Shown here: positions 1 to 39,337 of the stretch, in pieces
Layout of the letters: each line of letters starts with the position of its first letter
How positions within the stretch are numbered: the stretch's first letter is position 1
NCBI RefSeq assembly: GCF_947488135.1
Contig: NZ_CANKYW010000011.1
Location: forward strand, 2,206 to 66,205
Direction: 5' to 3'
Source of the DNA: an uncultured Marivita sp.
Lineage (GTDB): Bacteria > Pseudomonadota > Alphaproteobacteria > Rhodobacterales > Rhodobacteraceae
Length of the DNA: 64,000 nt
The notes under the pieces: model-generated
Database searches by the model: none
What the model was told of the DNA's origin: nothing
What the model saw: only the letters and a program-made list of their open reading frames with translations
Translations under genes and position numbers: made by a program

Positions 1-35
1 TCTTTGATCAGGAATTTGAGGACCAAGCGGCATGA
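1..35 (+). CDS. 3' end of an upstream ORF running off the left edge (partial)
   Basis: Frame ending at TGA 33-35 is open back to nt 3 (FDQEFEDQAA*). It overlaps the next start as ATGA (32-35). Only 11 codons are visible, so support is weak. Confidence 0.25.
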   Translation, partial: FDQEFEDQAA

Positions 36-1726
36 AAAAGCTGAAATTCAAAAGACTTTGGCTGCTATCAAATCAAGAAAAGAAGGCCAGAGTTGAAGAT
101 TTTAGCCAAGCTGCAACAGCTGTCGTAGCGGACAACGATTTTGGCAAGTCTAGCTTGATCAAATCGCTCTACTCTTCTCTTGGAGCGGATCCATCACGCA
201 CGCCAGAAGCTTGGAAAAACGCAAAGGTTGAATCACTTCTGGAATTTGAGATCGACGGCAATTACTACTTTATCCTGAGGCAGGCGGGCCGCTTTGCGTT
301 GTTTGAGCAAGATGGATCGCTGATCTGGACTGCAAGTTCGATAGTTAAGGAGTTAGGCGCAAAAATTGGTGAGCTACTTGATTTTGAGATTGTGACAAAG
401 CTCAAAGGAGGCAGTAATGCGGTGCCTCCTCCAGCTTTCTGCTTCCTTCCCTTTTATCTTGATCAAGAGAAGGGCTGGGTAGACACATGGGCGTCATTTT
501 CAGGTTTGGACATGGTGAGCAGTTATAAGGATGACATTGCTCGCTATCACACTGGAATACGCCCCAAGGAATACTACCGTGCGAAGGCACTAAGAGATGA
601 ATCTGCGGCTGCACGAAATGAGCTAGCCCAAGAGCGTACCGCTTTGTCTAAAGCGAAGAAGCGCTTTAGCGATAAGCGTAAAAAGATGGGTATCGCACTG
701 GACGTTGGAGCGTTTGAAGACAGAATCAAAGCATTACTGAAAGAGCAAAACGGCCTTCAGAGCAGCTATGATGAAATACGTGGTGAAATTGGGCAATTAC
801 AGTCGCAGAGAGCCGCCTATCAAGAGGAGGTAGAAATAGCCGCGAAAGTGCTGTCTGAGTTGGAAGCAGATATCAAGTTCTCTCAAAAACTAAGCGAGGC
901 TGAAATCGTTTGTCCAGTGTGCAGCACGGTGCATGAAAACGACTTTGCCAACAGGTTTGGGCTTCACAATGACGCTGAAGCTTGTCGAATTGTTCTCGTC
1001 GAAGCGAGAGCTAGGGTTCAAAGGCTTGACAAAGATATAGACGCAAAGCTCAAAGCTATACCCACGCTTGATAAACGTATTGAGCGGATTCAGGAAATCC
1101 TGGAAGAGACGCGTGGCGAGATCAAGCTTGGTGACATGTTGCGCGACGAAAGTGAACGCATCGTTGACGATACCTTTGAGCAAGAAGAACGTTCTATTGA
1201 TGGCGACATAGGGGTATTAAACGATAGGATCTTAGAGGCTAAAAAGGAAATGAGCTCTTTTGACAAGAAAGAGCATAAAGAGAAAATAATAAAGTTTTAT
1301 GCAGGAAAATTGCATGAGTTTTGCACGAAACTAGGCATTGAAAATGTTCCTACGAATATGTGGGACAACATTCGCCCAACAATCAAAGAGACTGGCAACA
1401 GAGCTCCACGCCTACTGTTGGCATACAATTATGCTGTTTTGCACACGATCCATGAGTTTTCTACATCGTGCTTCTGCCCAATTGTTGTTGACACTCCCCT
1501 CCAACAAGACCCTGATCCCAAGAATGCAGAAAAGATGATCAGGTTCGCCATCAATGACCGCCCAAAAGGAAGTCAGTTAGTATTGGCTACTGGCAGCATG
1601 CAGGGCGTTGAGTTCTCTGGACGAGAGATAAACCCAGAAACCAAGGAGCAGCTTCTTCGAGCTGATCAGTATGAAGCCGTACGCAGGCATATGCTGCCTT
1701 TCTTAAACGCCATTTTGGAGCCGTAA
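32..1726 (+). CDS. Rad50/SMC-like ABC-fold ATPase with coiled-coil insert and CxxC hook
   Basis: 564-aa ORF in visibly AT-richer DNA. P-loop-like ADNDFGKSS at nt 128-154. Long K/E/Q/L-rich helical segment at aa ~185-410 with CPVC (nt 911-922) at its midpoint. C-terminal Walker-B-like PIVVDTPLQQDPD from nt 1478. Confidence 0.6.
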   Translation: MKKLKFKRLWLLSNQEKKARVEDFSQAATAVVADNDFGKSSLIKSLYSSLGADPSRTPEAWKNAKVESLLEFEIDGNYYFILRQAGRFALFEQDGSLIWTASSIVKELGAKIGELLDFEIVTKLKGGSNAVPPPAFCFLPFYLDQEKGWVDTWASFSGLDMVSSYKDDIARYHTGIRPKEYYRAKALRDESAAARNELAQERTALSKAKKRFSDKRKKMGIALDVGAFEDRIKALLKEQNGLQSSYDEIRGEIGQLQSQRAAYQEEVEIAAKVLSELEADIKFSQKLSEAEIVCPVCSTVHENDFANRFGLHNDAEACRIVLVEARARVQRLDKDIDAKLKAIPTLDKRIERIQEILEETRGEIKLGDMLRDESERIVDDTFEQEERSIDGDIGVLNDRILEAKKEMSSFDKKEHKEKIIKFYAGKLHEFCTKLGIENVPTNMWDNIRPTIKETGNRAPRLLLAYNYAVLHTIHEFSTSCFCPIVVDTPLQQDPDPKNAEKMIRFAINDRPKGSQLVLATGSMQGVEFSGREINPETKEQLLRADQYEAVRRHMLPFLNAILEP

Positions 1727-8165: not shown

Positions 8166-9095
8166 TCACTTCTCCGCAGACCTCTTCGCCGGGTCAGCAA
8201 CCCGCATGACCGTCAGGCCTTTTGCCTCCGCCTTCTGCCCGAGGTTCAGCGCGACTCCGTTGCCGCCAAAGAGTACAACCCCCGTCGCCGCGAACTTGTC
8301 GTCCAGCATTTCGTCATTGCACTTGAACGGTGCCGCCCGCCCGTGCGCGGACCAGCGCGGATCGAAGCGCGCCTGTGCTATCCCGCGTGCCCGGGCCCAC
8401 CGAGCCGCGATCATCTCCGCGCCGTGCTTGCCACCCTTGTGGCAGAGGAAGATCTCCTGGTTGCGGTTCTGCTTGATCCGTTCGCGAACCTTGTCGAGCG
8501 TGTTGAAGATCACATCGACATCGGTCCAGTCGGTTGCGCCCGAGACGATCAGGGGCACGCCCTCGACTTTCGACTTCTCGGCGGTTTCCCGGTCGTGCTG
8601 CTCGAGAAGCTGCTGCGCCTCGAAGACAGCGCCTGTCTCCTGCGCCCGGACGCTTGCGCGCGACCCGGCTGCCGGGATGAAGGCGTGGCCCGTCTCGATC
8701 TCGTAGCATTCCGCCGCTGCCTCGCTCATCACCTCGATGGCGCCGTCGATCTCGCGCAGCTGCAGAAAGCGCGCCTGCGCCTCTTCGAGCGCGGTCTCGG
8801 CGATCTCCGATCCGTCATGGGATTTTGCCAGCGCGCCGATTTTGTCGGCGGTGCGGTCGATCTCCTTGCCAAGTGCCACCTTGCGGCGCTGTAGGATCGT
8901 GGCGAGCCCATGGGCCAGCGGTTCGATTTCGCCTTCAAGGCCGGTCGCGCGCAGCGGACCGAGCAAAGCCTCGAAGCTCTCGCGGATGATGCGGTCGGTC
9001 AGGATGTGATCCTCGGGGATCGGCAGCTGTGCGTCCTTCTCGGTCAGTCCGAAAAGCTCAATGGTCTCGTAGGTGTTTGCGGTGTCGTAAGCCAT
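8166..9095 (-). CDS. DUF2493/SLOG-domain protein with unassigned N-terminal half
   Basis: C-terminal CHKGGKHGAEMIAARWARARGI...VVLFGGNGVALNLGQKA fits the DUF2493 (SLOG) fold. ATG 9095 has a GGAGA RBS. The track ORF extends to 9146. Confidence 0.6.
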   Translation of the reverse strand: MAYDTANTYETIELFGLTEKDAQLPIPEDHILTDRIIRESFEALLGPLRATGLEGEIEPLAHGLATILQRRKVALGKEIDRTADKIGALAKSHDGSEIAETALEEAQARFLQLREIDGAIEVMSEAAAECYEIETGHAFIPAAGSRASVRAQETGAVFEAQQLLEQHDRETAEKSKVEGVPLIVSGATDWTDVDVIFNTLDKVRERIKQNRNQEIFLCHKGGKHGAEMIAARWARARGIAQARFDPRWSAHGRAAPFKCNDEMLDDKFAATGVVLFGGNGVALNLGQKAEAKGLTVMRVADPAKRSAEK

Positions 9096-9914
9096 GTCTG
9101 GTCTCCAGTGTTCGGTTCCAAGGCCACCACGTGAGTGTGGGGGCATGGCCGAATGCCTGGTTTCCGAATCTGCACGGGTCAGGGACGGCGCAGCCGCCGG
9201 CTTGCCGGGCGCAAAAGTTTTCCGCGCGCAGCATCTGACACTTGCGCGCCCTCACGCACGAGACCGCCCCGCGCCACAGACCCCGCCCTCGCCGAAAAGT
9301 TTTGCGATCCTTGACGCGGGCTGATTTGGGGGCCATCCGGAGGATATGCTTCCACGCTCATGTGTGTGTGTTTAGACGGTAGGTTTGCCCGACCCGAGCA
9401 GGCAAACGGCCCGACCGGACGCGGGAGACGGATGAAGCGGCGGGATCGTTTTGCTCCGCAAAACAGACCTGAGCGCAATCCGGCGGAGCGGCCAGGGAGA
9501 GACGTGCTCGCGAGGCGGGCAAACCGGGATGCCAGGCGCAACGCCGCGGTGAGGCCGCATGGCCGAATGCGCGACGGACCGAAGGGCCGTTCTCCCCTGC
9601 GACACGCGCAGCCGAGCTGGGGAGCCGCAAGGCTCCGGCCAAGGTTGATGTGCGGGCGACGCCGCTGCCGACTATAGGTATTGCTTGTCCGGGCATTCGA
9701 CTTAAAGGGCGGGCGGACGTTCGCTGCGGCAGCGAAAATAGTGAAGCAGGTCAAGAAAACCGGACGTTTGCCGTAAGATTTCGAACTGATTGATGCGCCC
9801 TCAGCCTTTCTCGACACCGTGGCATTCCAACCCGGCTTTATCCAAATCAAGCGTCAAATTCGGTAGCGCTCGTCGCAATACTCGGCTACGATTTTACGAA
9901 AAGCAGGTGGTTGC

Positions 9915-10901
9915 ATGGCACGCGGAGAACTGATGAAAAAGCTGTTGTCGAGCTACGGGCGCGACGATGAATTCCGTGGTGTTGTCGAACAGATCATCTC
10001 CGAAGAGGAAAAAAAGAACAACCGAGTGCTAGCACGGTCACTGCGCAAGGCACTGGATGGACTGACGACACACCCGCAAGCCAAGGGTCTTTCTCCTTTG
10101 GTGCCGTTCCCAGACGAGGCCGGAGAGTTCATCCAGCGGATCGAACCCGTTCATACGCCCGATGACATCATCCTGACTCACGATAACATTGAGCTCTTCA
10201 CTGGGCTACTGGATGAATTCCGAAAGTCCGAAACGATCAAGCGCCACGGGCTTCCCGTGCGTTCCAAACTACTGTTCTGCGGGCCACCTGGAACGGGCAA
10301 GACATTGTGTGCTGAGGTTTTCGCCGGCCAGCTGGGATTGCCGTTTTTCTTTGTCAAACTGGACAGCCTCATCTCTTCATTTTTGGGCGAGACTGCCACC
10401 AATATTCGCAAGACCTTTGAGTTTGCACGCCGCCAGCCATGCGTACTTTTTTTCGATGAATTTGACGCGATTGCGCGGTCGCGGGAAGAAGGCAACGATC
10501 ACAGTGAACTGAGACGCGTGGTCAACAGTCTTCTGATCTTCATCGATCAGATACAGCCAGGTGGCTTTCTGATTGCCGCCACCAACCTGGACGCTCACCT
10601 TGATCCCGCCATATGGCGACGCTTCGATGAAGTAGTATGGTTTGACCATCCCGACGAAGCAATGGTCCGCAGGTATCTCACCAATGCGCTGAAAAACACC
10701 GAAACGGAGTTCGAAGCAGAGGATTTCGTTCAGAGCCTAGCTGATTATTCCTATGCCGAGCTTGAAAAAATTTGCAACCAGGCCAAGAAAATTTCTCTTC
10801 TTGATCGCCGAAAAAGCATTTCAAAGAAAGACTTTCGTGATGCCATCCGTTACGCTGAACGCCGCAGGATGCGTTTAAGGAAATTATCGAACAACCAGTG
10901 A
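9915..10901 (+). CDS. ietA: Classic-clade AAA+ ATPase, IetA-like
   Basis: 328 aa in an AT-richer islet. Walker A GPPGTGKT (nt 10281-10304), Walker B VLFFDEFD, sensor-1 AATN, RRFD arginines. About 110 aa of the N-terminal domain is unassigned. Confidence 0.75.
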   Translation: MARGELMKKLLSSYGRDDEFRGVVEQIISEEEKKNNRVLARSLRKALDGLTTHPQAKGLSPLVPFPDEAGEFIQRIEPVHTPDDIILTHDNIELFTGLLDEFRKSETIKRHGLPVRSKLLFCGPPGTGKTLCAEVFAGQLGLPFFFVKLDSLISSFLGETATNIRKTFEFARRQPCVLFFDEFDAIARSREEGNDHSELRRVVNSLLIFIDQIQPGGFLIAATNLDAHLDPAIWRRFDEVVWFDHPDEAMVRRYLTNALKNTETEFEAEDFVQSLADYSYAELEKICNQAKKISLLDRRKSISKKDFRDAIRYAERRRMRLRKLSNNQ

Positions 10902-13240
10902 GGCCACTGTTGGCACAATACGATCATCTGCAACTGGTCAGAGCGAAAGAGCCTTTTGCACGCCGAAAAGACGGCAGACCCGGTCCAGCGCCCAAGCCGG
11001 GAAAGGGTCACGGAGGGCAAATACGGCGCGAAGCCGATGATGCGGTCGCACGTCAACGCGCCATCCGCCCTCCCCAATTTGTCGATCCATCCCTGATTCT
11101 GAAAGTCCACATGCATGGACTGGCCATGGTGGGAGACTGGGAACAGCTTGGACTCACGTTGTTAAATACAGACGATGACAACAATATCGTCTTGTTTTCT
11201 TCAACAGATGAACTGAGCGATTTTCGCAATAGGCTGGATGCCTATGAGGGACCAACATCTGCAGGTCAGAAGAATCCGAGCTACTCCGGTTTTATCAACC
11301 GTATCGGTAGTATTAGCACACTGGAGCCGCGCGACCGTCTCGGGATCAGGATCAAAGAAGCCGGTTTTACGGAGGTTTCTGATCTTCAAGACGGCCAAGA
11401 GTACATACTCGATGTCGAACTTTGGGAGTTCGGGACGCAGGCTGCGCGTCGTCGAAAGGCAGAAGAAATCATCGCGTTCATTGAGGAGCAGGGTGGAGAG
11501 CCATACGACCACTATTCTGGGCCATCTATCACGATGATCCGGGTCAAGGCTTCAGGGCAGTCCATCAGACCGATTTTTTCTGTTCCTGAAGTAGCTTTTA
11601 TTGACCTTCCACCGGAGCCGGACATCGAAGCCAATCAGATCGTCCAGTTCGCGCTAGATGATGTTCCGCCCGTTGCGCCTCTTGACCCTGATCTGCCAAT
11701 CATTGCTGTGTTGGATACGGGCGTGAACGATCATCCATTCCTCGCGGATGCGATCGTCGCGCGCGAGGCCTTTCCCAGCGAGCTCGGTGAAGCAGATATT
11801 GCCGGACACGGGACGGCAGTGGCCGGTGTTGCCGCGCTTGGTGATTTAAGGTCGCAGCTCGACGGAACCTCTTTGCAACGTGTGGCGAGAATTATCTCGG
11901 CAAAGGTGGTAACGGACGAGCGGAAGTTTTTTGATCGTCGGACGCTGCCGAGCCAGATGAGACAAACGATCCAGAGCCTAAATGCAAGTCATGGATGCCG
12001 GATATTCGTGATCTCTCTCGGCGACACGAAGGCTAACTTTGAGCAAGGACGCGTTGGTCCTTGGGCAACGACGCTGGATGAGTTGGCACGTGAGTTGAAC
12101 GTCCTGATCTTTGTGTCAGCGGGAAACCGGCCCCCTCGTGGCGGTACATCAGTTGAGCAAGGCGTGACCCAATATCCGGGCTATCTCCTTGAAGTCGCAA
12201 ACCGTGTATGTGAACCTGCTGGAGGCGCAAACATCGTGACGGTTGGTGCATTGGCTCATGCAAACGGCATTGGCCCTCAGCATGAATTTGATGCGCATAT
12301 TCAGCCCATCACCGAGCGAGATGAACCTGCACCTTTCACGCGCACTGGCCCAGGCGCCGGAGGCATGACCAAACCTGATTTCGTCGACTATGGCGGGACA
12401 ATGGTTTTTGATGCCGTGGCGAGGCGTTTGCAGACGGCCCCTCATCTGGCGACGGCAGGCCTGATTACAACAAACCACGATTTCTTGCGTCAATTGCTTA
12501 CAAGCAAAAGCGGCACGTCTTTCGCCGCACCGATGTTAGCGAACAGGGCTGCGCAGTTGGTCAGACGTTTCCCCGGGGCATCAGCCAATCTGATCAAAGC
12601 GCTTCTGGCGAATTCCGCGACTGTTCCAGAGGCTACCACTCGACGACTGTTGGCTCTTGATGCGCGTGATCATTCAAGAGTCCATGGTATTGGCCTCGTC
12701 GACACCTTGCGTGCGGCCTACTCGGATGATCACCGCGTTGTTTACTTCGTGGAAGACAGTCTGGAACTGGACCATTTCGCAGTCTATCGGGTGCCAATAC
12801 CGATTGAGTTTCAGACAGGAGGAAAACGCACTATTCGGGTTTCTCTGGCGTATGATCCTCCGGTGAAAAGAACCCGCGCAGAGTATATCGGCACGCGTAT
12901 GAATTTTCGCCTTATTCGGGGCTGCCCGGTCGATCACGTCTTCGAGTATTTTCGCTCGCGGGTGGGAGAGGGAACGGATCCCCCAGAGATGGCGGGAAAA
13001 TATGATTGTGATCTGGTGCCCAAGAAGAACGCTCGCGACAAAAACACAATCCAAAGCGCCTCGATATCGTTCTCAGCCGACACAACACAATATGGCGGTG
13101 AATATCATCTGGTAGTACGTTGCGTGGGTGGCTGGGCTATGGATCAGGAGATCCGTCAAAACTTCGCGCTGGTAGTCGAACTGGAGCACCATGCTCAAGT
13201 GCAGCTGTATGCAAGGCTACGGCCGAGATTGCGGACCTGA
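10898..13240 (+). CDS. ietS: Cytoplasmic S8 (subtilisin-family) serine protease, IetS-like
   Basis: 780 aa. Catalytic residues: VLDTGV (D273, nt 11714), GHGTAVAG (H304, nt 11807), SAGN (N410), SGTSFAAP (S541, nt 12518). No signal peptide. GTG start overlaps the ietA-like stop as GTGA; an alternative ATG lies at 11111. Confidence 0.75.
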   Translation: MRPLLAQYDHLQLVRAKEPFARRKDGRPGPAPKPGKGHGGQIRREADDAVARQRAIRPPQFVDPSLILKVHMHGLAMVGDWEQLGLTLLNTDDDNNIVLFSSTDELSDFRNRLDAYEGPTSAGQKNPSYSGFINRIGSISTLEPRDRLGIRIKEAGFTEVSDLQDGQEYILDVELWEFGTQAARRRKAEEIIAFIEEQGGEPYDHYSGPSITMIRVKASGQSIRPIFSVPEVAFIDLPPEPDIEANQIVQFALDDVPPVAPLDPDLPIIAVLDTGVNDHPFLADAIVAREAFPSELGEADIAGHGTAVAGVAALGDLRSQLDGTSLQRVARIISAKVVTDERKFFDRRTLPSQMRQTIQSLNASHGCRIFVISLGDTKANFEQGRVGPWATTLDELARELNVLIFVSAGNRPPRGGTSVEQGVTQYPGYLLEVANRVCEPAGGANIVTVGALAHANGIGPQHEFDAHIQPITERDEPAPFTRTGPGAGGMTKPDFVDYGGTMVFDAVARRLQTAPHLATAGLITTNHDFLRQLLTSKSGTSFAAPMLANRAAQLVRRFPGASANLIKALLANSATVPEATTRRLLALDARDHSRVHGIGLVDTLRAAYSDDHRVVYFVEDSLELDHFAVYRVPIPIEFQTGGKRTIRVSLAYDPPVKRTRAEYIGTRMNFRLIRGCPVDHVFEYFRSRVGEGTDPPEMAGKYDCDLVPKKNARDKNTIQSASISFSADTTQYGGEYHLVVRCVGGWAMDQEIRQNFALVVELEHHAQVQLYARLRPRLRT

Positions 13241-13374
13241 AGACCCCGACATTTTCTAGCAATTGTTGCGCGTCTATCGGTAATCTTCGGACTAACAAAC
13301 GTCAGCTTCGAGCAAGCCGCGCTGCGGCGAACTTTGCGCTCATCGAACGGCCGGAATCGGCCGAGTGTACGGCT

Positions 13375-13975
13375 TCAGTCCAGATCGACGCTGCCGAGGC
13401 GCGGCACATGGACATGCGTCCGGACAAGGACTGCAGCTGCAGCGCCCGCGATGGCGCCGAAGAGATGCGCCTCCCACGAGACGCCGGGTTGGCTCGGAAG
13501 AACGCCCCAGAGAATGGAGCCATAGAGGACACCGACACCCAGTGCCGCGCCCAGCGTGATCGGGGAGCGATCCACAAGACCGCGCGCGATGAGGAAGCCG
13601 AACCAGCCGAAGACCAGCCCTGACGCTCCGATATGGATGGCGGAGCTTCCGAACAGCCAGACAAGACCGCCGCCGAGGCCGATCACCACGGCGTTCACCG
13701 GCAGCAAAGCTCGCGTGGTCGTTGCCACCAGCAGCCCCCCCCATCACCAATAGCGGCGGCGTATTGGCCATCAGTTGCGAGAAGCTGCCATGCAGGAGGG
13801 GCATAGCGATGACACCATCCAACCCGCTGCCGTGCCTGGGGATCAGGCCGAAGGCCGGGTTCAGGCCGTAGCCGGTGATCCAATTGACAACCTGAACCGC
13901 CCAGAGCAGCGCGACAAAGGCTGCAAGCGCCGCGGTGCGCCGGAAGAAGACGCGCATGTGATCCCGGTTCATCAT
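13375..13975 (-). pseudogene. Rhomboid-family intramembrane serine protease, frameshifted in a G8 run
   Basis: The upstream frame carries [12 protein letters not shown]. The downstream frame carries GASGLVFG (Ser) and HLFGAIAG (His). The frames join if one G is removed from the C8/G8 run at 13735-13742 (..VMGGLLVATTTRALL..). Confidence 0.7.
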
Positions 13976-14105
13976 GTTGGCGACAGTAGTCGTCCCCACA
14001 GCGCCTTCAACGGCTTTCGCGCGCTGCACAGGGTGCCACCTCCGGGAAAGGGGGTTCGCGGCGGCCAACCTCGGTAGGGCTCAAGCCAAGAGAATGGCTC
14101 CGATC

Positions 14106-21695: not shown

Positions 21696-21790
21696 TGCGC
21701 TTTCTCCGACTATACTATGGGTCGATGCTACATCACCCAGAGTGGTGCCGTAACCGGCAAGGCCGTAAGGTTCACAGCTAACCGGGCCAC

Positions 21791-22309
21791 TTACCGATCG
21801 GGCGCCGCTTCGACAGCCGTCTCGAACCGCTTGTCCGCCGCCGCAGCGTCTTTCAAGAGCACGTCGAAATTGTCAGGTGGATTTCCATCTTCCAGCATCC
21901 CTTTGAACGTCGCATAGGCATCCGTCTTGCTGCCGTAGGCGCGCAGAGTCTTATCGTCGTTCACCCAGGCCACCAGGATGACCTTGGCATCGCTGTTGAA
22001 GCGGTAGAACAACCGATACTTCTGGAAGAATTTCGCCCGGAACCAGTGCTTGCGATGATCGCCGAGCGTGCCGCCTTGCCGGAAAGCGGCGGCACCCGGG
22101 TCCGCCGGTATGGCCTCGGTGACCAGCTTGAAGATGGCTGCCAGCCGTTTCGTGGGGTTTTTCTTGCGCCAGGTCTTTGGATCGCGTGCCTTACGCGCTT
22201 CAACCTCCTCGATCAGCCCTTCGAGCTGGTCCAGAAAGAGCGGATGCGCATAGATCGACCATCCGTTTACGACGAGGGGCGCTTGGGCTGGCACGCTATC
22301 GCCGCTCAT
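21791..22309 (-). CDS. yhaV: Type II toxin YhaV (ribonuclease)
   Basis: 172 aa. VNGWSIYAHPLF, KHWFRAKF..YRLFYRF, VILVAWVNDDKTLRAYGSKTDAYATFKGML are nearly collinear with E. coli YhaV. ATGA overlap with prlF. Confidence 0.85.
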   Translation of the reverse strand: MSGDSVPAQAPLVVNGWSIYAHPLFLDQLEGLIEEVEARKARDPKTWRKKNPTKRLAAIFKLVTEAIPADPGAAAFRQGGTLGDHRKHWFRAKFFQKYRLFYRFNSDAKVILVAWVNDDKTLRAYGSKTDAYATFKGMLEDGNPPDNFDVLLKDAAAADKRFETAVEAAPDR

Positions 22310-22632
22310 TCATCCTCGAGCGATAGCGGCGCATCGAGATCGACGTCAACGTCTCCGACCAGTGCTGCTAGACGGCCATGCAAAGCCCCATTGAACGCCC
22401 GAATGCGGTCCGGATGCGCCTTGATATCGGCCTCGACAAAATCGAGAAAGGCGCCGAGCGCAGGATCATCCTCGTCGCTGCGCACGGGCTCGATATAGAC
22501 CCTGCCACTCGGCTCGGTGCAGTAGCGAATCTGGTCGCCCTTGCCCAGCTTGAGCTGTTTGCGCACACCCGCCGGCACGGTCGTCTGATACCGATCCGTG
22601 AGTTTCGAGACATCTTGTGCGAGCGCTGTCAT
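22306..22632 (-). CDS. prlF: Antitoxin PrlF (AbrB/SpoVT-type)
   Basis: 108 aa from ATG 22632. TDRYQTTVPAGVRKQLKLGKGDQIRY is the swapped-hairpin DNA-binding motif. Acidic tail. Confidence 0.8.
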   Translation of the reverse strand: MTALAQDVSKLTDRYQTTVPAGVRKQLKLGKGDQIRYCTEPSGRVYIEPVRSDEDDPALGAFLDFVEADIKAHPDRIRAFNGALHGRLAALVGDVDVDLDAPLSLEDE

Positions 22633-22756
22633 GGCAGTCTCCTGAAAGAATGGGGTCTTTGCTGCCTGCGATAGGTAATGCATTTGCATTGCCCTGTCAA
22701 GATAAGCCGCAGGATCTGCTGTCGCCGGCAGGTCGATCAACGGTTCGGCACAGCAC

Positions 22757-23413
22757 CTATTCTCGCCCCGCCAGGAACTCCGCCAGCACTGGGCTGACCG
22801 CGCCCTTTGCGGAGCTGAGCAGCTCCGAGCCCGCAAGCGAGGCCTTCGAGAGACGTACGAGCCCACCGGTTTCCTCGATGCGATAACAGCGACGCTTTTG
22901 CCGCCCGCGCCTGTAGTGCGTCGCGGTGACGATCTGGCAGGTGCTGCCGTCGGTCAGGGTCACAGGTGCTGCAAGCTTGATCTTGTCGCCTTCGGCATAG
23001 TCCGGGATCGCAGCCCAGTCCCGGCAACGCTGGCGCCAGGCATGGGCGTAGCTGGCCGGGTCTTTCAGGTCGGAGAGGAGCTCGATCAGCCCAAAGGGAG
23101 CGCGAGACTCGTTCGAGCCAGCGCTTTCCTCCATATCCTTGTAGCCCCAGCAGCCATCATCGTATCGGGTGAGGAAGACAGCCCCGAAGGTGATCGAGCC
23201 GTCAGGATCGGTGACATAGGTTGCGTCTTCGACAGGGGTGCCGTCGAGACTTGTGACCTTTGCCGCCGCATACCAGGTGGAGCCAACCTTGCAGGCCTTG
23301 ACCAGTTCGGTCTCGCGCGTGTCGCCCTCGAAGGTGCAAAGCCGCGTGATTTCCGCCTTCTCATCCGCGTAGGATTTGACGCGACGGTCCGTGTAGAAGA
23401 GCCAACCCATCAC
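22757..23413 (-). CDS. Hypothetical protein (conserved-looking, unknown function)
   Basis: 218 aa. 4-nt overlap with the upstream gene. No motif recognised. Confidence 0.55.
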   Translation of the reverse strand: MMGWLFYTDRRVKSYADEKAEITRLCTFEGDTRETELVKACKVGSTWYAAAKVTSLDGTPVEDATYVTDPDGSITFGAVFLTRYDDGCWGYKDMEESAGSNESRAPFGLIELLSDLKDPASYAHAWRQRCRDWAAIPDYAEGDKIKLAAPVTLTDGSTCQIVTATHYRRGRQKRRCYRIEETGGLVRLSKASLAGSELLSSAKGAVSPVLAEFLAGRE

Positions 23414-28768: not shown

Positions 28769-29119
28769 ATGCACATCACGAACTTTGCTGAAGCCGGGCA
28801 ATTCGAACCGCGCAAGATCGCCGCAGCGTTGCGCACATCAGCAGAAGAGATCGCATTGACCGTCGGCTTGGGCAAAGACGCGTTGCAGAGGCGAGCCCGC
28901 ATCGGTTCGGACAAGACGCAGCGCCGCCTGCGCGAATTGGTAGAGGTGCTGAACAAGGTCGAACCCCGCTTCGGCTCGGAACTGATGGCCTATGCATGGT
29001 ACCGGTCAGAGCCCCTGCCCGGCTTTGATGGCCGGACAGCCATGCAGCTGGTTCAGGAAGGCAAAGCTCAGCAAGTTCTGGAATACATCGACGCGGTCGA
29101 TGCGGGCGTCTTTGCCTGA
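28769..29119 (+). CDS. Xre/ParS/MbcA-type antitoxin (DUF2384 toxin-binding domain)
   Basis: 116 aa. C-terminal AWYRSEPLPGFDGRTAMQLVQEG. TGATG one-nt overlap with the RES gene. Confidence 0.8.
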   Translation: MHITNFAEAGQFEPRKIAAALRTSAEEIALTVGLGKDALQRRARIGSDKTQRRLRELVEVLNKVEPRFGSELMAYAWYRSEPLPGFDGRTAMQLVQEGKAQQVLEYIDAVDAGVFA

Positions 29120-29631
29120 TGCCGCTGAAAGATGGGCGCTATACAGGACCACTCTATCGTGCACTGAACCCGGTCTATGCGCGTGAACCTCTGTCCGGAC
29201 GAGGCGCTGAACTTTGTGGAGGGCGCTTTAATGCCAAGGGCACCCCTGCCCTCTACACCTCGCTGGATCCCGCGACCGCTCTTAGAGAAGCCAACCAGGT
29301 CGGCAGCCTGCAACCCACGATCCTGGTGTCCTACAAGGCCGACCTTGGGCCTATTTTCGATACCCGCGATCAGGATGGACTTGACCGGTATAACGCGACC
29401 GAGGCGATGCTTGCCGACCCTGCATGGCGCATGAAGATGCTCGATGGCCTACTGGTGCCGACACAGGATTTAGCACGCGCCCTCATAGCGGATCGGTTTG
29501 CGGGGCTTCTAATCCAGAGTTTTGCGAAGGGCGCGTCATCATCGGACTTGAACATCGTTTTGTGGGCCTGGACTGACAATACCGGTTCTTTGGAAGTGGT
29601 GGATGACGAAGAGCGGCTGTCACGCATGTGA
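29119..29631 (+). CDS. RES-domain toxin (NAD+-targeting ParT/MbcT family)
   Basis: 170 aa. LYRA..., GGRFNAKGTPALYTSLDPATALRE, LLIQS. Confidence 0.85.
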   Translation: MPLKDGRYTGPLYRALNPVYAREPLSGRGAELCGGRFNAKGTPALYTSLDPATALREANQVGSLQPTILVSYKADLGPIFDTRDQDGLDRYNATEAMLADPAWRMKMLDGLLVPTQDLARALIADRFAGLLIQSFAKGASSSDLNIVLWAWTDNTGSLEVVDDEERLSRM

Positions 29632-29804: not shown

Positions 29805-30860
29805 CTAGGCGGTTTGCATAGAAGTTTTGGACAGACGCGTGATCAAAGCCATTGGATCAAACTGGGCTTGACGTTGGCCCAAGGTGATACTGTGAAAATA
29901 CGCTCCAAAGTCCCTGATGCGTTTTCCAAGCTGCAGCATGATGAAGATCGCGCATGACGCTTTCTGAGCTCCTACAGCTTCCTTGGCTTTCTCGAATGTT
30001 TCTGGGTGAATGCCCATCATGGGTGCAAGTGTTCGAGCATGGTTTTCAATGTCCAACCAGTTTCTAAGCCTCTCTGTGGAGAATGATGTAGCTTGATCGC
30101 AAACTGACGTCAGCAAGTCTGGTTTCAGAGCTTCATTGTCTATGTTGCTATCTAAATCTTTCTTTTCTTCTTCAGACTTAGATTGGTGCCGGACAGTTTG
30201 TCCGTCATTGGCGGGCAATTCCATAGTTTCTGGCGGGTCATCTGGGGTATGCAAACTCTGGCATTCTCTGTCTGTGTCTGCGAGCAGCGCGTGGTATTCA
30301 GGGAGGCTCAGCTTCCTGCGTAGAGCTTTCCGTGCGTGGTTGATGAATGTGTTGTTGGGATCATGCTCTTCCAGATGGGCGAGCTTTGTAAGGATCTGTT
30401 TGCGGACAAATATCCGATCCCGCCGGTTATTTTCCATCTCATGTGCGATGGCGATAAGCTCGCTCGCACGTTGGAGGAGGGGGGTTAGAGACAGTCCATA
30501 ACTGATGCACTCCCCGCCGGACGAGCGAACGCGGTAGCGCTTTCGGTTCGAGCTGTCATTGCGCTTGATGAAACCGAGTTCGACGAAGCGGTTGATGTGT
30601 CTGCGGAGTGTCCGTTCGTCGATTCCGCCGACGCGCTGGCAAATGGAGTCGTTGGACGCGAAAACCGTTTCGCCATGGCCGGGCTTCAAGAAACTGAGCA
30701 TGGCTTGAAGTGTTTGGATATGGCCAGGACGCAGACCGAATACGCAACGTGCATCTCTAAGTGCCCTGAAGATGGTCCAGATGTCGGTTTCATCCGCAGA
30801 AGTTGAGCCGCGTGATGCATCAGCACCAGCGGTTCTGATCGATAGTTTTGTAAATGCCAT
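29805..30860 (-). CDS. repC: Replication initiator RepC
   Basis: 351 aa from ATG 30860. LSFLKPGHGETVFASNDSICQRVGGIDERTLRRHINRFVELGFIKRNDSSNRKRY is typical of RepC. Third gene of repABC. Confidence 0.9.
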   Translation of the reverse strand: MAFTKLSIRTAGADASRGSTSADETDIWTIFRALRDARCVFGLRPGHIQTLQAMLSFLKPGHGETVFASNDSICQRVGGIDERTLRRHINRFVELGFIKRNDSSNRKRYRVRSSGGECISYGLSLTPLLQRASELIAIAHEMENNRRDRIFVRKQILTKLAHLEEHDPNNTFINHARKALRRKLSLPEYHALLADTDRECQSLHTPDDPPETMELPANDGQTVRHQSKSEEEKKDLDSNIDNEALKPDLLTSVCDQATSFSTERLRNWLDIENHARTLAPMMGIHPETFEKAKEAVGAQKASCAIFIMLQLGKRIRDFGAYFHSITLGQRQAQFDPMALITRLSKTSMQTA

Positions 30861-30996
30861 GGTTTGTTCACGACGACCGTTCGGCCTACAGCTTCCCAGT
30901 CTCTTCCCGAGATTTCGCTCAGGAGAAGGCAATAAAAATCCGTCCACCGAATCGGTGACTCTTGACCGGTTTGCTGGAGGTTGCTACATCATGAGT

Positions 30997-31097: not shown

Positions 31098-32081
31098 CTA
31101 GGACCCAGAGCCGCTCTCATTCCGCCACTGTTCGAAGAGCTTCAAAAGCGCTGCCTCCGCGCGCTCTTCGATCCATTGGCCGAATTCTGGGTTGTCTTTC
31201 TTGGCGATCTTGATGGCGATCGTTTTCTGATCGATTGTCAGCGTTCCCACAGAGCTACCGTCCGCATCTTTGACGACGGACGTTAGGCTACCGTTGGCTT
31301 GCTTCTTGTCGCTACGTGCCTTGTTCGAGCAAGCCGAGTAGACTGCCTGAAACTTTTCCGCGCTTGGAGTGTCGTCGGGCAGGGCGGCAATCACCTCTTT
31401 GGCCGTGTTCACCAGATCTATCTTTTTCGAGAAAGCAGCCAGGTCACCCCATTGCCGTCGTCCGATGCCATGTGCCGGCCCTATCAGCTGTACAAGCCCT
31501 TCTGGCAGTTGCTCTATGACGACGCGATGGTTGGACACGCCCTGCCGTGTCAAGCCGAGAGCATCCTGGATGACGTTTGGCTTGTAACCTGATTCCTGCA
31601 TCTCTTTGATAAAAATAGATTTCTCAATAAAAGACGGGTCTAGTCGGAGGTTGTTCTCTTGGCCCTGTGCTATCAGAGAAGCGTCGTCATCCAAGGTCCG
31701 AACGATCGCCTTGACCGTTCCGCCGACCATGCGGATCGCTGCAAGCCTGCGTCGTCCGTAGATGATGCGGTATCTGTCCGGTTGCGCTGACGGACGGACC
31801 ATAATTGGTACTTGTTGCCCATGCTTGCGAATGCTTTCGGCCAACTCATCAATGCTGGAATCCTCCAGCACCAACCGATCGCGCAGGCCATCCATATCAA
31901 TCTGGTCGGGGTCGATGTCACGGATCGAATTCGCGGTAATCTCGCGCAAAGAGTCGCGCAATCCGCCAACAGAACCTGGCAGTTTTGCTGCCTTTGATGG
32001 GGTAGGGGAGGGGGCCGCGCTCTCCTTCTCTTCCTTTGGTGGCTGATTGAAGATGTTTCGGGCCATCAGCGACGCCCCCAT
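31098..32081 (-). CDS. repB: Partition protein RepB (ParB family)
   Basis: 327 aa. ParB N-domain SIDELAESIRKHGQQVPIMVRP..YRIIYGRRRLAA. Confidence 0.9.
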   Translation of the reverse strand: MGASLMARNIFNQPPKEEKESAAPSPTPSKAAKLPGSVGGLRDSLREITANSIRDIDPDQIDMDGLRDRLVLEDSSIDELAESIRKHGQQVPIMVRPSAQPDRYRIIYGRRRLAAIRMVGGTVKAIVRTLDDDASLIAQGQENNLRLDPSFIEKSIFIKEMQESGYKPNVIQDALGLTRQGVSNHRVVIEQLPEGLVQLIGPAHGIGRRQWGDLAAFSKKIDLVNTAKEVIAALPDDTPSAEKFQAVYSACSNKARSDKKQANGSLTSVVKDADGSSVGTLTIDQKTIAIKIAKKDNPEFGQWIEERAEAALLKLFEQWRNESGSGS

Positions 32082-33265
32082 GCCATTTGGATTGTCTGTT
32101 CCAACTCATCGCCAACGCCGTTCACGCTGGTCAAAGCGCGATCAATCGTTTTTCTGATGAATTGGCTAGGATCAACTTCGTAGACGGTTTGCTGGGTCAT
32201 ACCAGCGTCCGAGATTGCCGTAGATTTTAACATTGGTTCAGTCATGACTTGTCCGGCCAAGATCGATCTCAAGTAGCCCGCCATTTGCGTCTGGGGCCCG
32301 TCCGACGGTTCGTATCTCGTGATCAAGAACTTTACGAAGTCCCAGGTAACGCGCCGGCCAATGGCTTCTTCCACGGCCTTGACCGTTTCCGAAGCAAGTT
32401 TCAGGAACTGGCTCATGGAAGCGATGTCGAGCATGCCGGGTACCACGGTTACCAAAAGCCCCGTCGAGGCTGCCAACGCCGTAAGGGTCAAAAAACCAAG
32501 TTGAGGTGGGCAGTCGATTAGGACGATGTCGTAATTCGCCTCTACTTCCTCAAGCGCTAGGGCGAGACGCTCCGCAAATATGGGCTGCACCCGGCGAGCA
32601 AGGGCGTTTGCCGTCTCGGTTTCGTATTCCGAGAGCATTAGACCCGCTGGGACCATATCGAGCTTATGGAAGTAGGTTTTTTGGACGACGGCTGAGAGCG
32701 GAACTTGCTCCTCATATCTCAGGGCATCATAGATTGTGCCGCCTTCGGCGAACTCGAGCTCGGGCCGAAAGCCGAAAAAGGTGGTCAGACTTGCCTGCGG
32801 ATCGAGATCCAAAACCAATACTCGGTAGCCTCGCAAGGCATACCGTTGTGCAAGATGTATCGTTGCTGTCGTTTTTGACGATCCGCCTTTGAAATTGACG
32901 ACAGATATCACCTGGAGACGATCGCCCTCACGTCGACCAGGGCGGTAGTTTTCTGCGTTCTTTCCAGTGCGCCCCAGAATATCGCGCAACTCATCAATCT
33001 CTTGGGCTGTGTAGAACCGGTGTCCGCGGTTGTCTGTATGCACTTCCGGGAAGCTGCCGTCCTTGTGCCGGTTGCGCAGGTTAGATGTGCTCACGCGCAG
33101 GAGGCTGGCGACCTCGGTAGAACTGAATCGACGCAGGGACTTTCGTTCTTCGGGCTCGAAAGCGATCTTCATCTGGCGATCCAAAGACTCAGCCAGATTG
33201 TCGGCAAATGCTCCGATGTCGGAAGAGCCTATGCCTTGCGCGTATCCAACGTTACGATCATCCAT
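32066..33265 (-). CDS. repA: Partition ATPase RepA (ParA family)
   Basis: 399 aa. N-terminal HTH, deviant Walker A NFKGGSSKTT, LDLDPQAS. Confidence 0.9.
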   Translation of the reverse strand: MDDRNVGYAQGIGSSDIGAFADNLAESLDRQMKIAFEPEERKSLRRFSSTEVASLLRVSTSNLRNRHKDGSFPEVHTDNRGHRFYTAQEIDELRDILGRTGKNAENYRPGRREGDRLQVISVVNFKGGSSKTTATIHLAQRYALRGYRVLVLDLDPQASLTTFFGFRPELEFAEGGTIYDALRYEEQVPLSAVVQKTYFHKLDMVPAGLMLSEYETETANALARRVQPIFAERLALALEEVEANYDIVLIDCPPQLGFLTLTALAASTGLLVTVVPGMLDIASMSQFLKLASETVKAVEEAIGRRVTWDFVKFLITRYEPSDGPQTQMAGYLRSILAGQVMTEPMLKSTAISDAGMTQQTVYEVDPSQFIRKTIDRALTSVNGVGDELEQTIQMAWGRR

Positions 33266-38166: not shown

Positions 38167-38222
38167 TTCTATAACTCAAAAATCTTCTATATGTGAGTTA
38201 TAGAAAGGAGTTCTATAACTCA
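38167..38222. promoter_or_regulatory. Three copies of TTCTATAACTCA (direct, inverted, direct) upstream of fic
   Basis: Copies at 38167-38178 (direct), 38194-38205 (reverse complement) and 38211-38222 (direct, ending on the A of the ATG). Set in a short AT-rich patch. Confidence 0.4.
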
Positions 38223-39337
38223 TGGCATGGAACTGGCAGGTACCGGGTTGGCCGGATTTCCAGTATGACGAGGCCGCACTGGCACCGCTTGAGCAGCGTT
38301 TCCTGATGTCGTCGGGCGAGGTCTTGGGGGCTGTCCACCATGTGAACCCGTCCGAGCGTGATCAACTCCGCATCGACCTGCTGAGCGATGAAGCAATGAA
38401 GACCAGTGCCATCGAGGGCGAGATGCTGGATCGGCGCAGTGTGCAATCCTCTCTTCGCCGCCACCTTGGATTGGAACCGGACAACTATCCGAACAAACCC
38501 CGAGAGCAAGGTGTGGCTGAGATGATGGTTGACGTTTACTCGACCTATGCCGAGCCCCTTACGCACGAAACCCTGTTTCGGTGGCATGAGATGCTTCTTG
38601 CCTTCGACAAGCGTCTGGAGGCCATCGGGTCATACTGGCAGCACGAGGATGCCATGCAGATCGTCTCGGGGCGTCTTGATCGCCCGGTCATACATTTTGA
38701 GGCCCCGCCATCTGCCCAGGTGCCGGAAGAGATGAACCGATATGTCGACTGGTTCAATCGGACAGCGCCAGATGACGAAGAGCCCTTGCCAGCATTGACG
38801 CGCGCCGGTCTCAGTCACCTTTACTTCGAAAGTGTCCACCCGTTTGAGGATGGGAATGGTCGCCTGGGCCGGGCCCTGGCCGAAAAATCCCTGGCTCAGA
38901 ACATTGGGCAACCGAGCCTCATCGCGCTGGCCTTCACCATCGAGCGAAAACGGAAGGACTACTACGATCAGCTTGAGCGGCACCAGAAGACGCTGGATGT
39001 CACTCCTTGGCTGGTCTGGTTTGCAGAGGCCGTTCTCGAAGCGCAGCAAGTTACCCTCGACCGCGTGGGCTTCTTCATTGCCAAGGCGCATTTCTATGAC
39101 CGGCATCGCGACGCGCTGAACGAAAGACAGGCCAAGGTGATCGAGCGGATGTTCCGGGAAGGGCCGGATGGGTTCAAAGGTGGGCTGAGCGCGGAGAACT
39201 ATATTTCGATCACGGGGACTTCCCGCGCGACGGCAACAAGGGATCTCCAGGAGCTTGTCGAGAACGGTGCCCTGACGCGCACCGGCGAACGCCGATACAC
39301 GCGGTACTGGCTCAAGCTTGAGGAGATGGGCGAATAG
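38222..39337 (+). CDS. Class II Fic-domain protein with C-terminal wHTH
   Basis: 371 aa. Active-site HPFEDGNGRLGRA. N-terminal inhibitory-helix motif TSAIEG. C-terminal TSRATATRDLQELVENGAL. Confidence 0.9.
   Translation: MAWNWQVPGWPDFQYDEAALAPLEQRFLMSSGEVLGAVHHVNPSERDQLRIDLLSDEAMKTSAIEGEMLDRRSVQSSLRRHLGLEPDNYPNKPREQGVAEMMVDVYSTYAEPLTHETLFRWHEMLLAFDKRLEAIGSYWQHEDAMQIVSGRLDRPVIHFEAPPSAQVPEEMNRYVDWFNRTAPDDEEPLPALTRAGLSHLYFESVHPFEDGNGRLGRALAEKSLAQNIGQPSLIALAFTIERKRKDYYDQLERHQKTLDVTPWLVWFAEAVLEAQQVTLDRVGFFIAKAHFYDRHRDALNERQAKVIERMFREGPDGFKGGLSAENYISITGTSRATATRDLQELVENGALTRTGERRYTRYWLKLEEMGE

Follow-up and report, generated by a model that had tools for sequence, protein, structure and literature searches.

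In a 64,000-nucleotide stretch of a contig from an uncultured Marivita sp. (hereafter, the window), two adjacent plus-strand genes, ietA and ietS, encode an AAA+ ATPase and a cytoplasmic S8 subtilase. The pair is best explained as a toxin–antitoxin/abortive-infection cassette of the Y4kL/Y4kK type, exchanged as cargo at a defence hotspot on a conjugative, broad-host repABC plasmid of Rhodobacterales, and we assign this reading as a whole a probability of about 0.7. The narrower identification as an IetAS-family toxin–antitoxin or abortive-infection cassette can be made with high confidence. The mechanism outlined below, in which a latent protease would be kept in check by ATP-dependent restraint, is considerably more tentative.

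An earlier reading made from the letters of the sequence alone (the sequence-only reading) had proposed an IetAS-like identity, and searches against PADLOC profiles supported it for both proteins. IetA matched PDLC02196 (5.2e-80) and PDLC04232 (5.1e-75), with residues 1–319 covered, and IetS matched PDLC02198 (2.3e-112) over residues 6–778 of 780 together with seven more PADLOC IetS models. The Pfam set, run on the window proteins without the Y4kK models, returned only AAA (IetA residues 119–244, 7e-35) and Peptidase_S8 (IetS residues 267–575, 5e-34). A homologue search with IetS identified at least 950 relatives. Among the best 120 listed, nearly all were full length, with at least 53% identity, and all but two carried Y4kK_N (PF27160) and Y4kK_2nd (PF27210) before Peptidase_S8 (PF00082) in precomputed annotation. 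A protein 99% identical to the window IetS (P0001) also carries PF27160 and PF27210. Because its close homologues share this domain string, the window pair can be classed by sequence as a diverged member of the Y4kL/Y4kK-type IetAS subfamily. PF27160 and PF27210 derive from Y4kK of the symbiotic plasmid of Sinorhizobium fredii NGR234, of which y4kL is presumably the AAA partner.

The two genes also stay together in relatives. Six unrelated genomic contexts preserve the AAA-then-S8 order, and it is seen in loci L005, L006, L007, L009, L091, L092 and L094–97; the upstream AAA gene has 322–331 aa, intergenic gaps in relatives range from 3 to 48 nt, and synteny held in every context examined. An AAA gene lies directly 5′ of the ietS homologue in an integrative and conjugative element-like region of a Chelativorans chromosome, in a defence-island-like region of a Wenzhouxiangella contig with PIN/FitA, methyltransferase (MTase) and ResIII helicase genes, in a metagenomic contig with adjoining IS110 and serine recombinase genes, in a small MobA/TraG plasmid-like contig and in one further metagenomic contig.

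The family itself has a longer history than had been assumed. The sequence-only reading traced ietAS to Gao et al. 2020, whereas the name was given earlier, on the repABC Ti plasmid pTiC58, to a serine-protease toxin and its AAA-ATPase antitoxin, which together make the plasmid more stable and strengthen its incompatibility (Yamamoto et al. 2009, J Bacteriol 191:4656, as cited in later papers). Since stability and incompatibility are the founding phenotype of pTiC58 ietAS, the suggestion that the window copy could target rival plasmids is not a new idea. An ietAS pair from Bacillus cereus works through abortive infection, and co-expression of the SPbeta yosG product renders it toxic. The view that no trigger, substrate or mechanism is established therefore holds only in part: a trigger (yosG) and abortive infection are known, whereas a 2026 paper on ietHAS states that the substrate and the molecular mechanism of anti-phage action remain unknown (Nucleic Acids Research, PMC13069673). 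The same paper reports that protease activity is needed for defence and that no construct carrying a mutated ietA could be recovered. In Mycoplasma mycoides, TA132/133 likewise combines an AAA-ATPase antitoxin with an S8 subtilase toxin (PMC8562856).

Comparison with these systems places the window pair within the family and at some distance from its characterised members. The pTiC58 pair was located as a 328-aa ATP-binding protein followed, after 3 nt, by an 836-aa S8 peptidase, and both proteins match the same PADLOC models as the window pair. In both cases an AAA-ATPase gene precedes an S8 gene within a few nucleotides on an alphaproteobacterial conjugative repABC plasmid. The two IetA proteins have the same length (328 aa) and are 33% identical end to end (E 4e-49), and the IetS proteins are homologous over window residues 259–652 (25% identity, E 6e-18). 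In contrast, the N-terminal ca. 260 aa of the window IetS could not be aligned with pTiC58 IetS, the lengths differ (780 vs. 836 aa), and PDLC02198 scores the pTiC58 protein at 86 bits against 374 for the window IetS, indicating a different subtype. The anti-phage ietAS of Gao et al. 2020 and its B. cereus homologue resemble the window pair in having two genes, both enzymatic domains and strong PADLOC matches. However, the window proteins score 225.3 bits against a cut-off of 510 for the NCBIfam model IteA_antiphage (NF042959) and 114.2 bits against a cut-off of 900 for IteS_antiphage (NF042956). With equivalog scores so far below the cut-offs, the window pair is not considered an orthologue of the tested anti-phage systems. 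The ietHAS system (Liu-DS4; PMC13069673) shares the IetA and IetS core but has an additional SNF2-type helicase, IetH, and no helicase is present in the window islet. TA132/133 of Mycoplasma, likened here by description, is the same enzymatic pair acting as a toxin–antitoxin system, although it is chromosomal and belongs to a distant lineage (PMC8562856).

The gene ietA (9915–10901, plus strand; PADLOC, Pfam AAA and pTiC58 homology) encodes a 328-aa classic-clade AAA+ ATPase. Its start is ambiguous between 9915 and 9933; position 9915 is favoured because the alignment with pTiC58 IetA runs from residue 1. Motif inspection located Walker A (GPPGTGKT, residues 123–130, nt 10281–10304), Walker B (VLFFDE with D181/E182, nt 10443–10460), sensor-1 AATN (residues 221–224) and RRFD (residues 235–238), each where the sequence-only reading had placed it. 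That reading had not listed pore-loop 1 (SFLGE, residues 155–159, nt 10377–10391), which has the aromatic–hydrophobic–Gly pattern, is intact and corresponds to KFMGE in pTiC58 IetA. This pattern is a hallmark of substrate-threading classic AAA+ proteins. The N-terminal domain (residues ca. 1–110) is conserved with pTiC58 IetA, and the closest solved relatives are the D2 domain of p97/Cdc48 and FtsH, with PAN also close. At the level of sequence, the motifs thus identify IetA as a classic-clade AAA+ protein whose ATP site and pore loop are both intact.

The gene ietS (10898–13240, plus strand; PADLOC, Pfam and homologues) has a maximal open reading frame (ORF) of 780 aa. The GTGA overlap with ietA described previously (10898–10901) exists for this maximal ORF. 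In 62 homologues, and in the closest plasmid as annotated by RefSeq, the start nevertheless falls at the codon-5 position, TTG 10910, and a GAGG Shine–Dalgarno sequence lies 6 nt 5′ of this codon, overlapping the ietA stop. The likely start is therefore TTG 10910, giving a protein of 776 aa, and the junction is probably an 8-nt spacer, because the homologues and RefSeq start at this Shine–Dalgarno-preceded codon. Translational coupling of the two genes remains plausible. The residues D273, H304, N410 and S541 stand in canonical subtilase contexts (D269/H300/N406/S537 if numbered from TTG 10910); across the 62 homologues the first three never vary, and conservation of S541 reaches at least 90%. 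No hydrophobic N-terminus or transmembrane segment was found in IetS, the maximum 19-residue Kyte–Doolittle mean being 1.05. Sequence inspection and the homologues together thus uphold the earlier description of IetS as an intracellular subtilase that has all four catalytic residues and lacks a signal peptide.

The architecture of IetS was predicted with AlphaFold2 using the 62 homologues, in a full-length model (mean predicted local distance difference test score, pLDDT, 84; predicted template modelling score, pTM, 0.71) and a separate N-terminal model, and structural matches were obtained with Foldseek. In the predicted order, a short conserved tail at the N-terminus is followed by a pair of alpha/beta domains, a disordered linker and the subtilase core, and the protein ends in a beta domain. 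Within the tail, H10, L11, L13, R15, R22, R23 and K24 are nearly invariant among the 62 homologues; it forms short strands of moderate confidence in the full-length model and is disordered in the N-terminal model, which hints that it may pack on the catalytic or C-terminal part. The following region (residues ca. 30–236, nt 10985–11605) is modelled as two tandem ferredoxin-like beta-alpha-beta-beta-alpha-beta domains with pLDDT > 90 in the N-terminal model. Its best Foldseek matches are ACT-type ferredoxin-like regulatory tandems (E 2e-4, with low template modelling, TM, scores), and it also matches 8c4z_A, the 112-residue chain A of a Proteinase T entry (probability 0.99, TMt 0.49), which we take to be the Proteinase T propeptide. 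A Pro/Asp-rich linker (residues ca. 237–258, nt 11606–11671) is predicted to be disordered, with pLDDT < 50 at residues 239–250 and a mean of 37 in the 10-residue block from 241; D236, P239, D242 and P257 in this part are nevertheless invariant in the 62 homologues. The subtilase core (residues ca. 259–610, nt 11672–12727), delimited by Pfam, motifs, conservation and the model, contains the tetrad. The C-terminal domain (residues ca. 613–780, nt 12734–13237) is modelled as an all-beta sandwich, with pLDDT mostly 81–94 and two 10-residue blocks of ca. 65 around residues 681–700; it is analogous to the corresponding domains of KP-43 (1wmd, TMt 0.70) and Tk-SP. This domain is common to pTiC58-type IetS, given that PDLC02198 aligns to pTiC58 IetS residues 283–822.

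As a whole, the IetS model best matches extended or pro-form subtilases, namely ProN-Tk-SP (3afg), KP-43 (1wmd), TKSP with its propeptide (9ues) and unprocessed pro-subtilisin E (3whi), as well as fervidolysin and PCSK9 in the Protein Data Bank (PDB). A PDB sequence search returned only generic AAA+ proteins and subtilisin as solved relatives of IetA and IetS. From the model it is safe to state that the second ferredoxin-like domain is predicted to lie at the position of a subtilase prodomain; that the N-terminal region would inhibit IetS is a further step that we infer from this placement.

These features suggest a tentative mechanism. Uncontrolled IetS activity, reported to be toxic for relatives from pTiC58, Escherichia coli and Mycoplasma, would be toxic here as well. 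IetS would be made in a latent form, with the tandem ferredoxin-like region and the linker serving as a regulatory or inhibitory module in cis. IetA, acting as a hexamer, would hydrolyse ATP to hold IetS inactive by engaging or remodelling it; such restraint is supported by the report that inactive ietA could not be cloned beside ietS. If IetA failed through plasmid loss, a protein of a phage or rival element, or a collapse of ATP, the freed IetS might cleave essential host proteins and cause growth arrest or death. The plasmid could benefit through post-segregational killing and stronger incompatibility with rivals, and the host population through phage defence by abortive infection. The cassette itself would have arrived on the plasmid via recombination within conserved flanks.

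The genomic setting of the pair was consistent with such an arrival. The two genes lie on a low-GC cargo islet of 3.6 kb (ca. 9730–13350), delimited by breakpoints, GC content and identity to the closest plasmid record, pRIdsm_03, inside a variable slot. The GC content of the islet is 0.534, compared with 0.646 and 0.618 in the left and right flanks, and GC at third codon positions (GC3) is 0.54–0.58 in the ietA/ietS pair and 0.72–0.84 in the adjoining genes. Homology with sister plasmids carrying different cargo ends at 9712–9737, fading gradually at this left junction, and restarts at 13351–13367; the AT-rich islet delimited earlier at 9690–13300 is thus essentially confirmed. The window and pRIdsm_03 are collinear over ca. 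2–21 kb at 92.8% identity. Calculated per 500 bp, however, identity is 85–95% in the backbone, 99.0–99.8% at 9.5–13.0 kb and 96–98% up to 14.5 kb, and the IetS protein is 99.2% identical in pRIdsm_03 (tblastn). At least 24 metagenomic contigs show this arrangement too, with an IetS of 99% identity, and relatives of 87% and 69% identity were found in other mobile contexts. Low GC and GC3, a slot shared with other defence systems and an islet identity exceeding that of the backbone together give good support to the view that this is a horizontally acquired conflict module, as the sequence-only reading had proposed.

With regard to the mode of acquisition, no terminal inverted or direct repeats of the islet rose above chance-level matches, and none of the ORFs of the islet encodes a recombinase. 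Transposon- or integron-type mobility was rejected in view of these two negatives and the gradual decay of homology on the left. Because repeats and a recombinase are lacking and the islet is 99.0–99.8% identical against 85–95% in the backbone, we favour, from the sequence comparison, replacement of the cassette through homologous recombination in the conserved flanks.

The left border of the slot is a non-coding stretch (9147–9729) whose conservation among sister plasmids extends to the breakpoint. It comprises ca. 580 bp of GC-rich DNA upstream of the DUF2493/YAcAr gene that might serve as a promoter, a regulatory region or a recombination substrate, and its counterpart in pRIdsm_03 has no annotated coding sequence. 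An Frpo-like single-stranded DNA promoter or other structured element at 9147–9730 was rejected at this level of analysis, as folding against shuffled sequences gave z-scores of −0.01 and +1.66 for the two strands; no Rfam match was found anywhere in the 64-kb window. Beyond this stretch, the left backbone flank is the DUF2493/YAcAr (SLOG) gene (8166–9146, minus strand; Pfam YAcAr 4e-20). The right backbone flank is a rhomboid protease gene (13375–13977, minus strand), identified by comparison with pRIdsm_03 and frameshifted in the window. Compared with pRIdsm_03, a 1-bp insertion (C at 13735) breaks it into two frames, which points to a pseudogene or to an error in sequencing; metagenomic copies of this arrangement have an undamaged gene of 217 aa.

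The flanks are conserved in 161 plasmid records from Pseudosulfitobacter, Phaeobacter, Sulfitobacter, Roseovarius, Paracoccus and other genera, only one of which (pRIdsm_03) contains the islet; three other plasmids that were examined have different genes in the same interval. For a broader sample, 80 genomic loci (L011–L090) were retrieved with the DUF2493/YAcAr protein, which is 95–97% identical across these loci from dozens of Rhodobacterales genera. This identity indicates a very recent and wide spread of the conjugative backbone, as judged from sequence. One of the loci is on a contig labelled Erythrobacter. The DUF736 or rhomboid marker is kept in 54 loci, and the interval between the YAcAr gene and these markers holds ca. 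29 different gene sets. Cargo was identified by PADLOC on 20 representatives, and at least 37 of the 54 loci carry genes matching defence models.

Other IetAS members are well represented in this cargo: a pTiC58-like IetA and IetS pair occupies eight loci (2e-68/2e-33) and a third IetS subtype (PDLC04233, 1e-216) one locus. Seven loci contain a short prokaryotic Argonaute (pAgo) with a TIR-APAZ partner (7e-211/0), six contain LmuB of Lamassu or LmuB-like ATPases (1e-101/5e-26), and three or four contain a cyclase with a patatin effector of the cyclic-oligonucleotide-based anti-phage signalling system (CBASS; 2e-109/9e-119). A cytosine MTase that is part of a likely restriction–modification (RM) pair (3e-121) is found in three loci, and AbiD (1e-51) and a retron-type reverse transcriptase with a ThsB-like TIR protein (9e-86/7e-134) in two loci each. 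Single loci carry a type IIG RM gene (1e-250), an MkoA-like (Mokosh-like) gene (1e-89), a HamB-like helicase (2e-32) and a weakly matching type I MTase-like gene (5e-14). On this comparative basis, the slot between the DUF2493/YAcAr and rhomboid/DUF736 genes can be regarded as a defence hotspot. A limited literature search, which is not proof of absence, found no earlier description of this hotspot in Roseobacter plasmids. Separately, an IetA-like AAA ATPase (25% identity) that lacks a recognisable S8 partner occurs at 5070–5975 of L079 and in L082 (C31–C33), adjoining unannotated proteins of 240 and 336 aa, and may pair with a different effector.

The replicon is a repABC plasmid, as had been proposed, with RepC at 29805–30947, RepB at 31098–32081 and RepA at 32066–33265 (29.8–33.3 kb); pRIdsm_03 is typed with a MOBP relaxase, a type IV coupling protein (T4CP) and MPF_T. 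The pRIdsm_03 annotation and GC-frame analysis agree that ietA and ietS are the only credible plus-strand genes between ca. 6.9 and 28.4 kb. All backbone genes from the relaxase-proximal intergenic region to ca. 28 kb point towards the relaxase side, and these minus-strand genes include YAcAr, DUF736, strawberry-notch, a ParB-like protein and ArdC. This arrangement is that expected for a leading region that can be read from the incoming strand (Samuel et al. 2024). Because the leading-region genes point the opposite way to the cassette, the same logic allows the reasonable inference, by analogy, that the transferred strand carries the sense sequence of ietAS and that expression would await complementary-strand synthesis. 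An RP4-type ATCCTGY nick motif was not found near 6.9 kb, and none of several inverted repeats at 6.9–7.4 kb is diagnostic of a nick site. The orientation against the backbone, stressed in the sequence-only reading, is real but not special: ca. 17 of 37 defence cargos in the slot lie opposite to the backbone and ca. 20 are co-oriented with it, and this mixture argues against strong selection on orientation.

Several alternatives to an exchangeable toxin–antitoxin/abortive-infection cassette were weighed. A pure addiction and incompatibility module as on pTiC58, causing post-segregational killing and excluding rival replicons with no role against phages, would fit the founding phenotype, the stability and incompatibility of a repABC plasmid; the window cassette likewise resides on a conjugative replicon of the repABC type, and full-length IetS homologues are common on plasmids of Rhizobium, Bradyrhizobium, Sinorhizobium and Mesorhizobium. 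However, the slot in sister plasmids mostly holds bona fide systems against phages or other mobile genetic elements (MGEs), other IetAS members defend against phages by abortive infection, and homologues occur in chromosomal defence-island-like contexts, for example beside MTase and ResIII helicase genes in L007. We therefore regard an exclusive addiction role as unlikely. A two-component ATP-dependent protease performing regulated turnover in the manner of PAN/proteasome or ClpX/ClpP, rather than a toxin–antitoxin pair, might be read from the proximity of IetA to p97 D2, PAN and FtsH, its intact pore loop and the tight coupling of the genes. Subtilases, however, are open-site monomeric endopeptidases and not self-compartmentalised chambers, the relatives act as toxin and antitoxin, and a distribution that is patchy, MGE-linked, low in GC and tied to a hotspot typifies conflict systems and not housekeeping genes, which makes such a protease quite improbable.

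Even less credence is given to a role in secretion, as in the type VII secretion system (T7SS) pair of mycosin (S8) and EccA (AAA+), or in the processing of conjugation or type IV secretion system components. Weak NCBIfam matches to T7SS_mycosin (6e-18) and T7SS_EccA (2e-9), one homologue record named 'mycosin' and the adjoining transfer genes would be in keeping with it, but the scores fall well short of the cut-offs (65/279 and 36/467 bits), a signal peptide or membrane anchor is lacking, and no other T7SS/ESX genes are nearby. Moreover, ca. 160 sister plasmids with the same transfer backbone lack the cassette, which is therefore dispensable for conjugation; this reading is hardly credible. 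It also appears very improbable that the cassette, silent or in decay, simply travels with the plasmid and serves no function there at present. The neighbouring rhomboid gene is frameshifted in the window and no recognisable sigma-70 promoter lies 5′ of ietA, although the scan behind the latter point, which covered promoters and terminators at 9.1–13.5 kb and gave counts equal to shuffle expectation, is uninformative for Alphaproteobacteria. In contrast, neither ORF is disrupted and no catalytic residue is missing, and the near identity of the islet DNA and IetS protein in pRIdsm_03, together with the recurrence of the arrangement in metagenomic contigs, is at odds with decay.

Some observations weigh against the toxin–antitoxin/abortive-infection interpretation that we prefer, or against its details. 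The phenotype of the Y4kK-type subfamily is extrapolated by analogy over 25–33% identity, with IteA and IteS scores below their cut-offs. The N-region of IetS is precisely the part that does not align with pTiC58 IetS, and regulation may differ between subtypes. The case for regarding the N-terminal domains as propeptide-like is weak, as the top matches of the N-terminal model are ACT-type tandems with TM scores of ca. 0.2. It is also hard to see how an ATPase would act as a labile antitoxin. Finally, a RES-domain toxin and PrlF/YhaV homologues are already on the plasmid, and the need for another addiction module is not obvious.

The RES-domain toxin gene (29119–29631, plus strand; Pfam RES 6e-22) adjoins repC in a low-GC patch at 28.5–30 kb and is presumably half of a RES–Xre toxin–antitoxin pair, and the region at 21787–23411 is homologous to the PrlF/YhaV-type toxin–antitoxin genes of pRIdsm_03. 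From ca. 21.4 kb, the window is rearranged relative to pRIdsm_03 and lacks its hydrogenase cluster. Further candidate defence genes were found elsewhere in the window. Just beyond the T4CP gene, positions 32–1726 (plus strand, GC 0.43–0.48) encode a full-length Lamassu LmuB (PADLOC PDLC00249, 2e-213), whose LmuA partner probably lies beyond the window edge; pRIdsm_03 has SbcD and SMC-like genes at this position, which may be a second variable defence slot. A protein with DUF4172 and Fic/DOC domains (38222–39337, plus strand; PADLOC SoFic, 7e-41) is a third candidate defence gene on the plasmid.

The window cassette is largely ordinary and its novelty modest: it is a diverged yet clear member of a family on the type of replicon on which that family was first found. 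What our analysis adds is the domain picture of the subtype, the hotspot and the evidence of recent cassette exchange. IetAS systems are widespread, and their activation mechanism is likewise stated to be unknown (PMC13069673). In this context, the Y4kL/Y4kK type represents an abundant and well-defined alphaproteobacterial subtype, for which a confident model suggests a zymogen-like architecture. Three IetAS subtypes and many other defence systems swap at one locus of the same backbone, in both orientations, and this exchange of cargo appears to be recent and flank-mediated. The slot thus offers a natural comparison suited to isogenic tests of phage defence versus plasmid addiction and incompatibility. 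We consider it possible, though on balance doubtful, that two stronger propositions hold jointly: that the interval upstream of the YAcAr gene, ca. 3 kb into the leading region of a highly promiscuous backbone with a type IV secretion system, is a new hotspot of defence exchange through recombination between near-identical flanks, and that IetS is a latent pro-subtilase reset by IetA. If so, immune cargo, including three IetAS subtypes, SPARTA-like pAgo, CBASS and Lamassu, would reside inside a region otherwise known for anti-defence genes. Y4kK-type IetS would then be held latent by an uncleaved tandem ferredoxin-like prodomain and tail with IetA as its ATP-driven resetter, and the IetA–IetS pair would sense the loss of IetA supply or of ATP.

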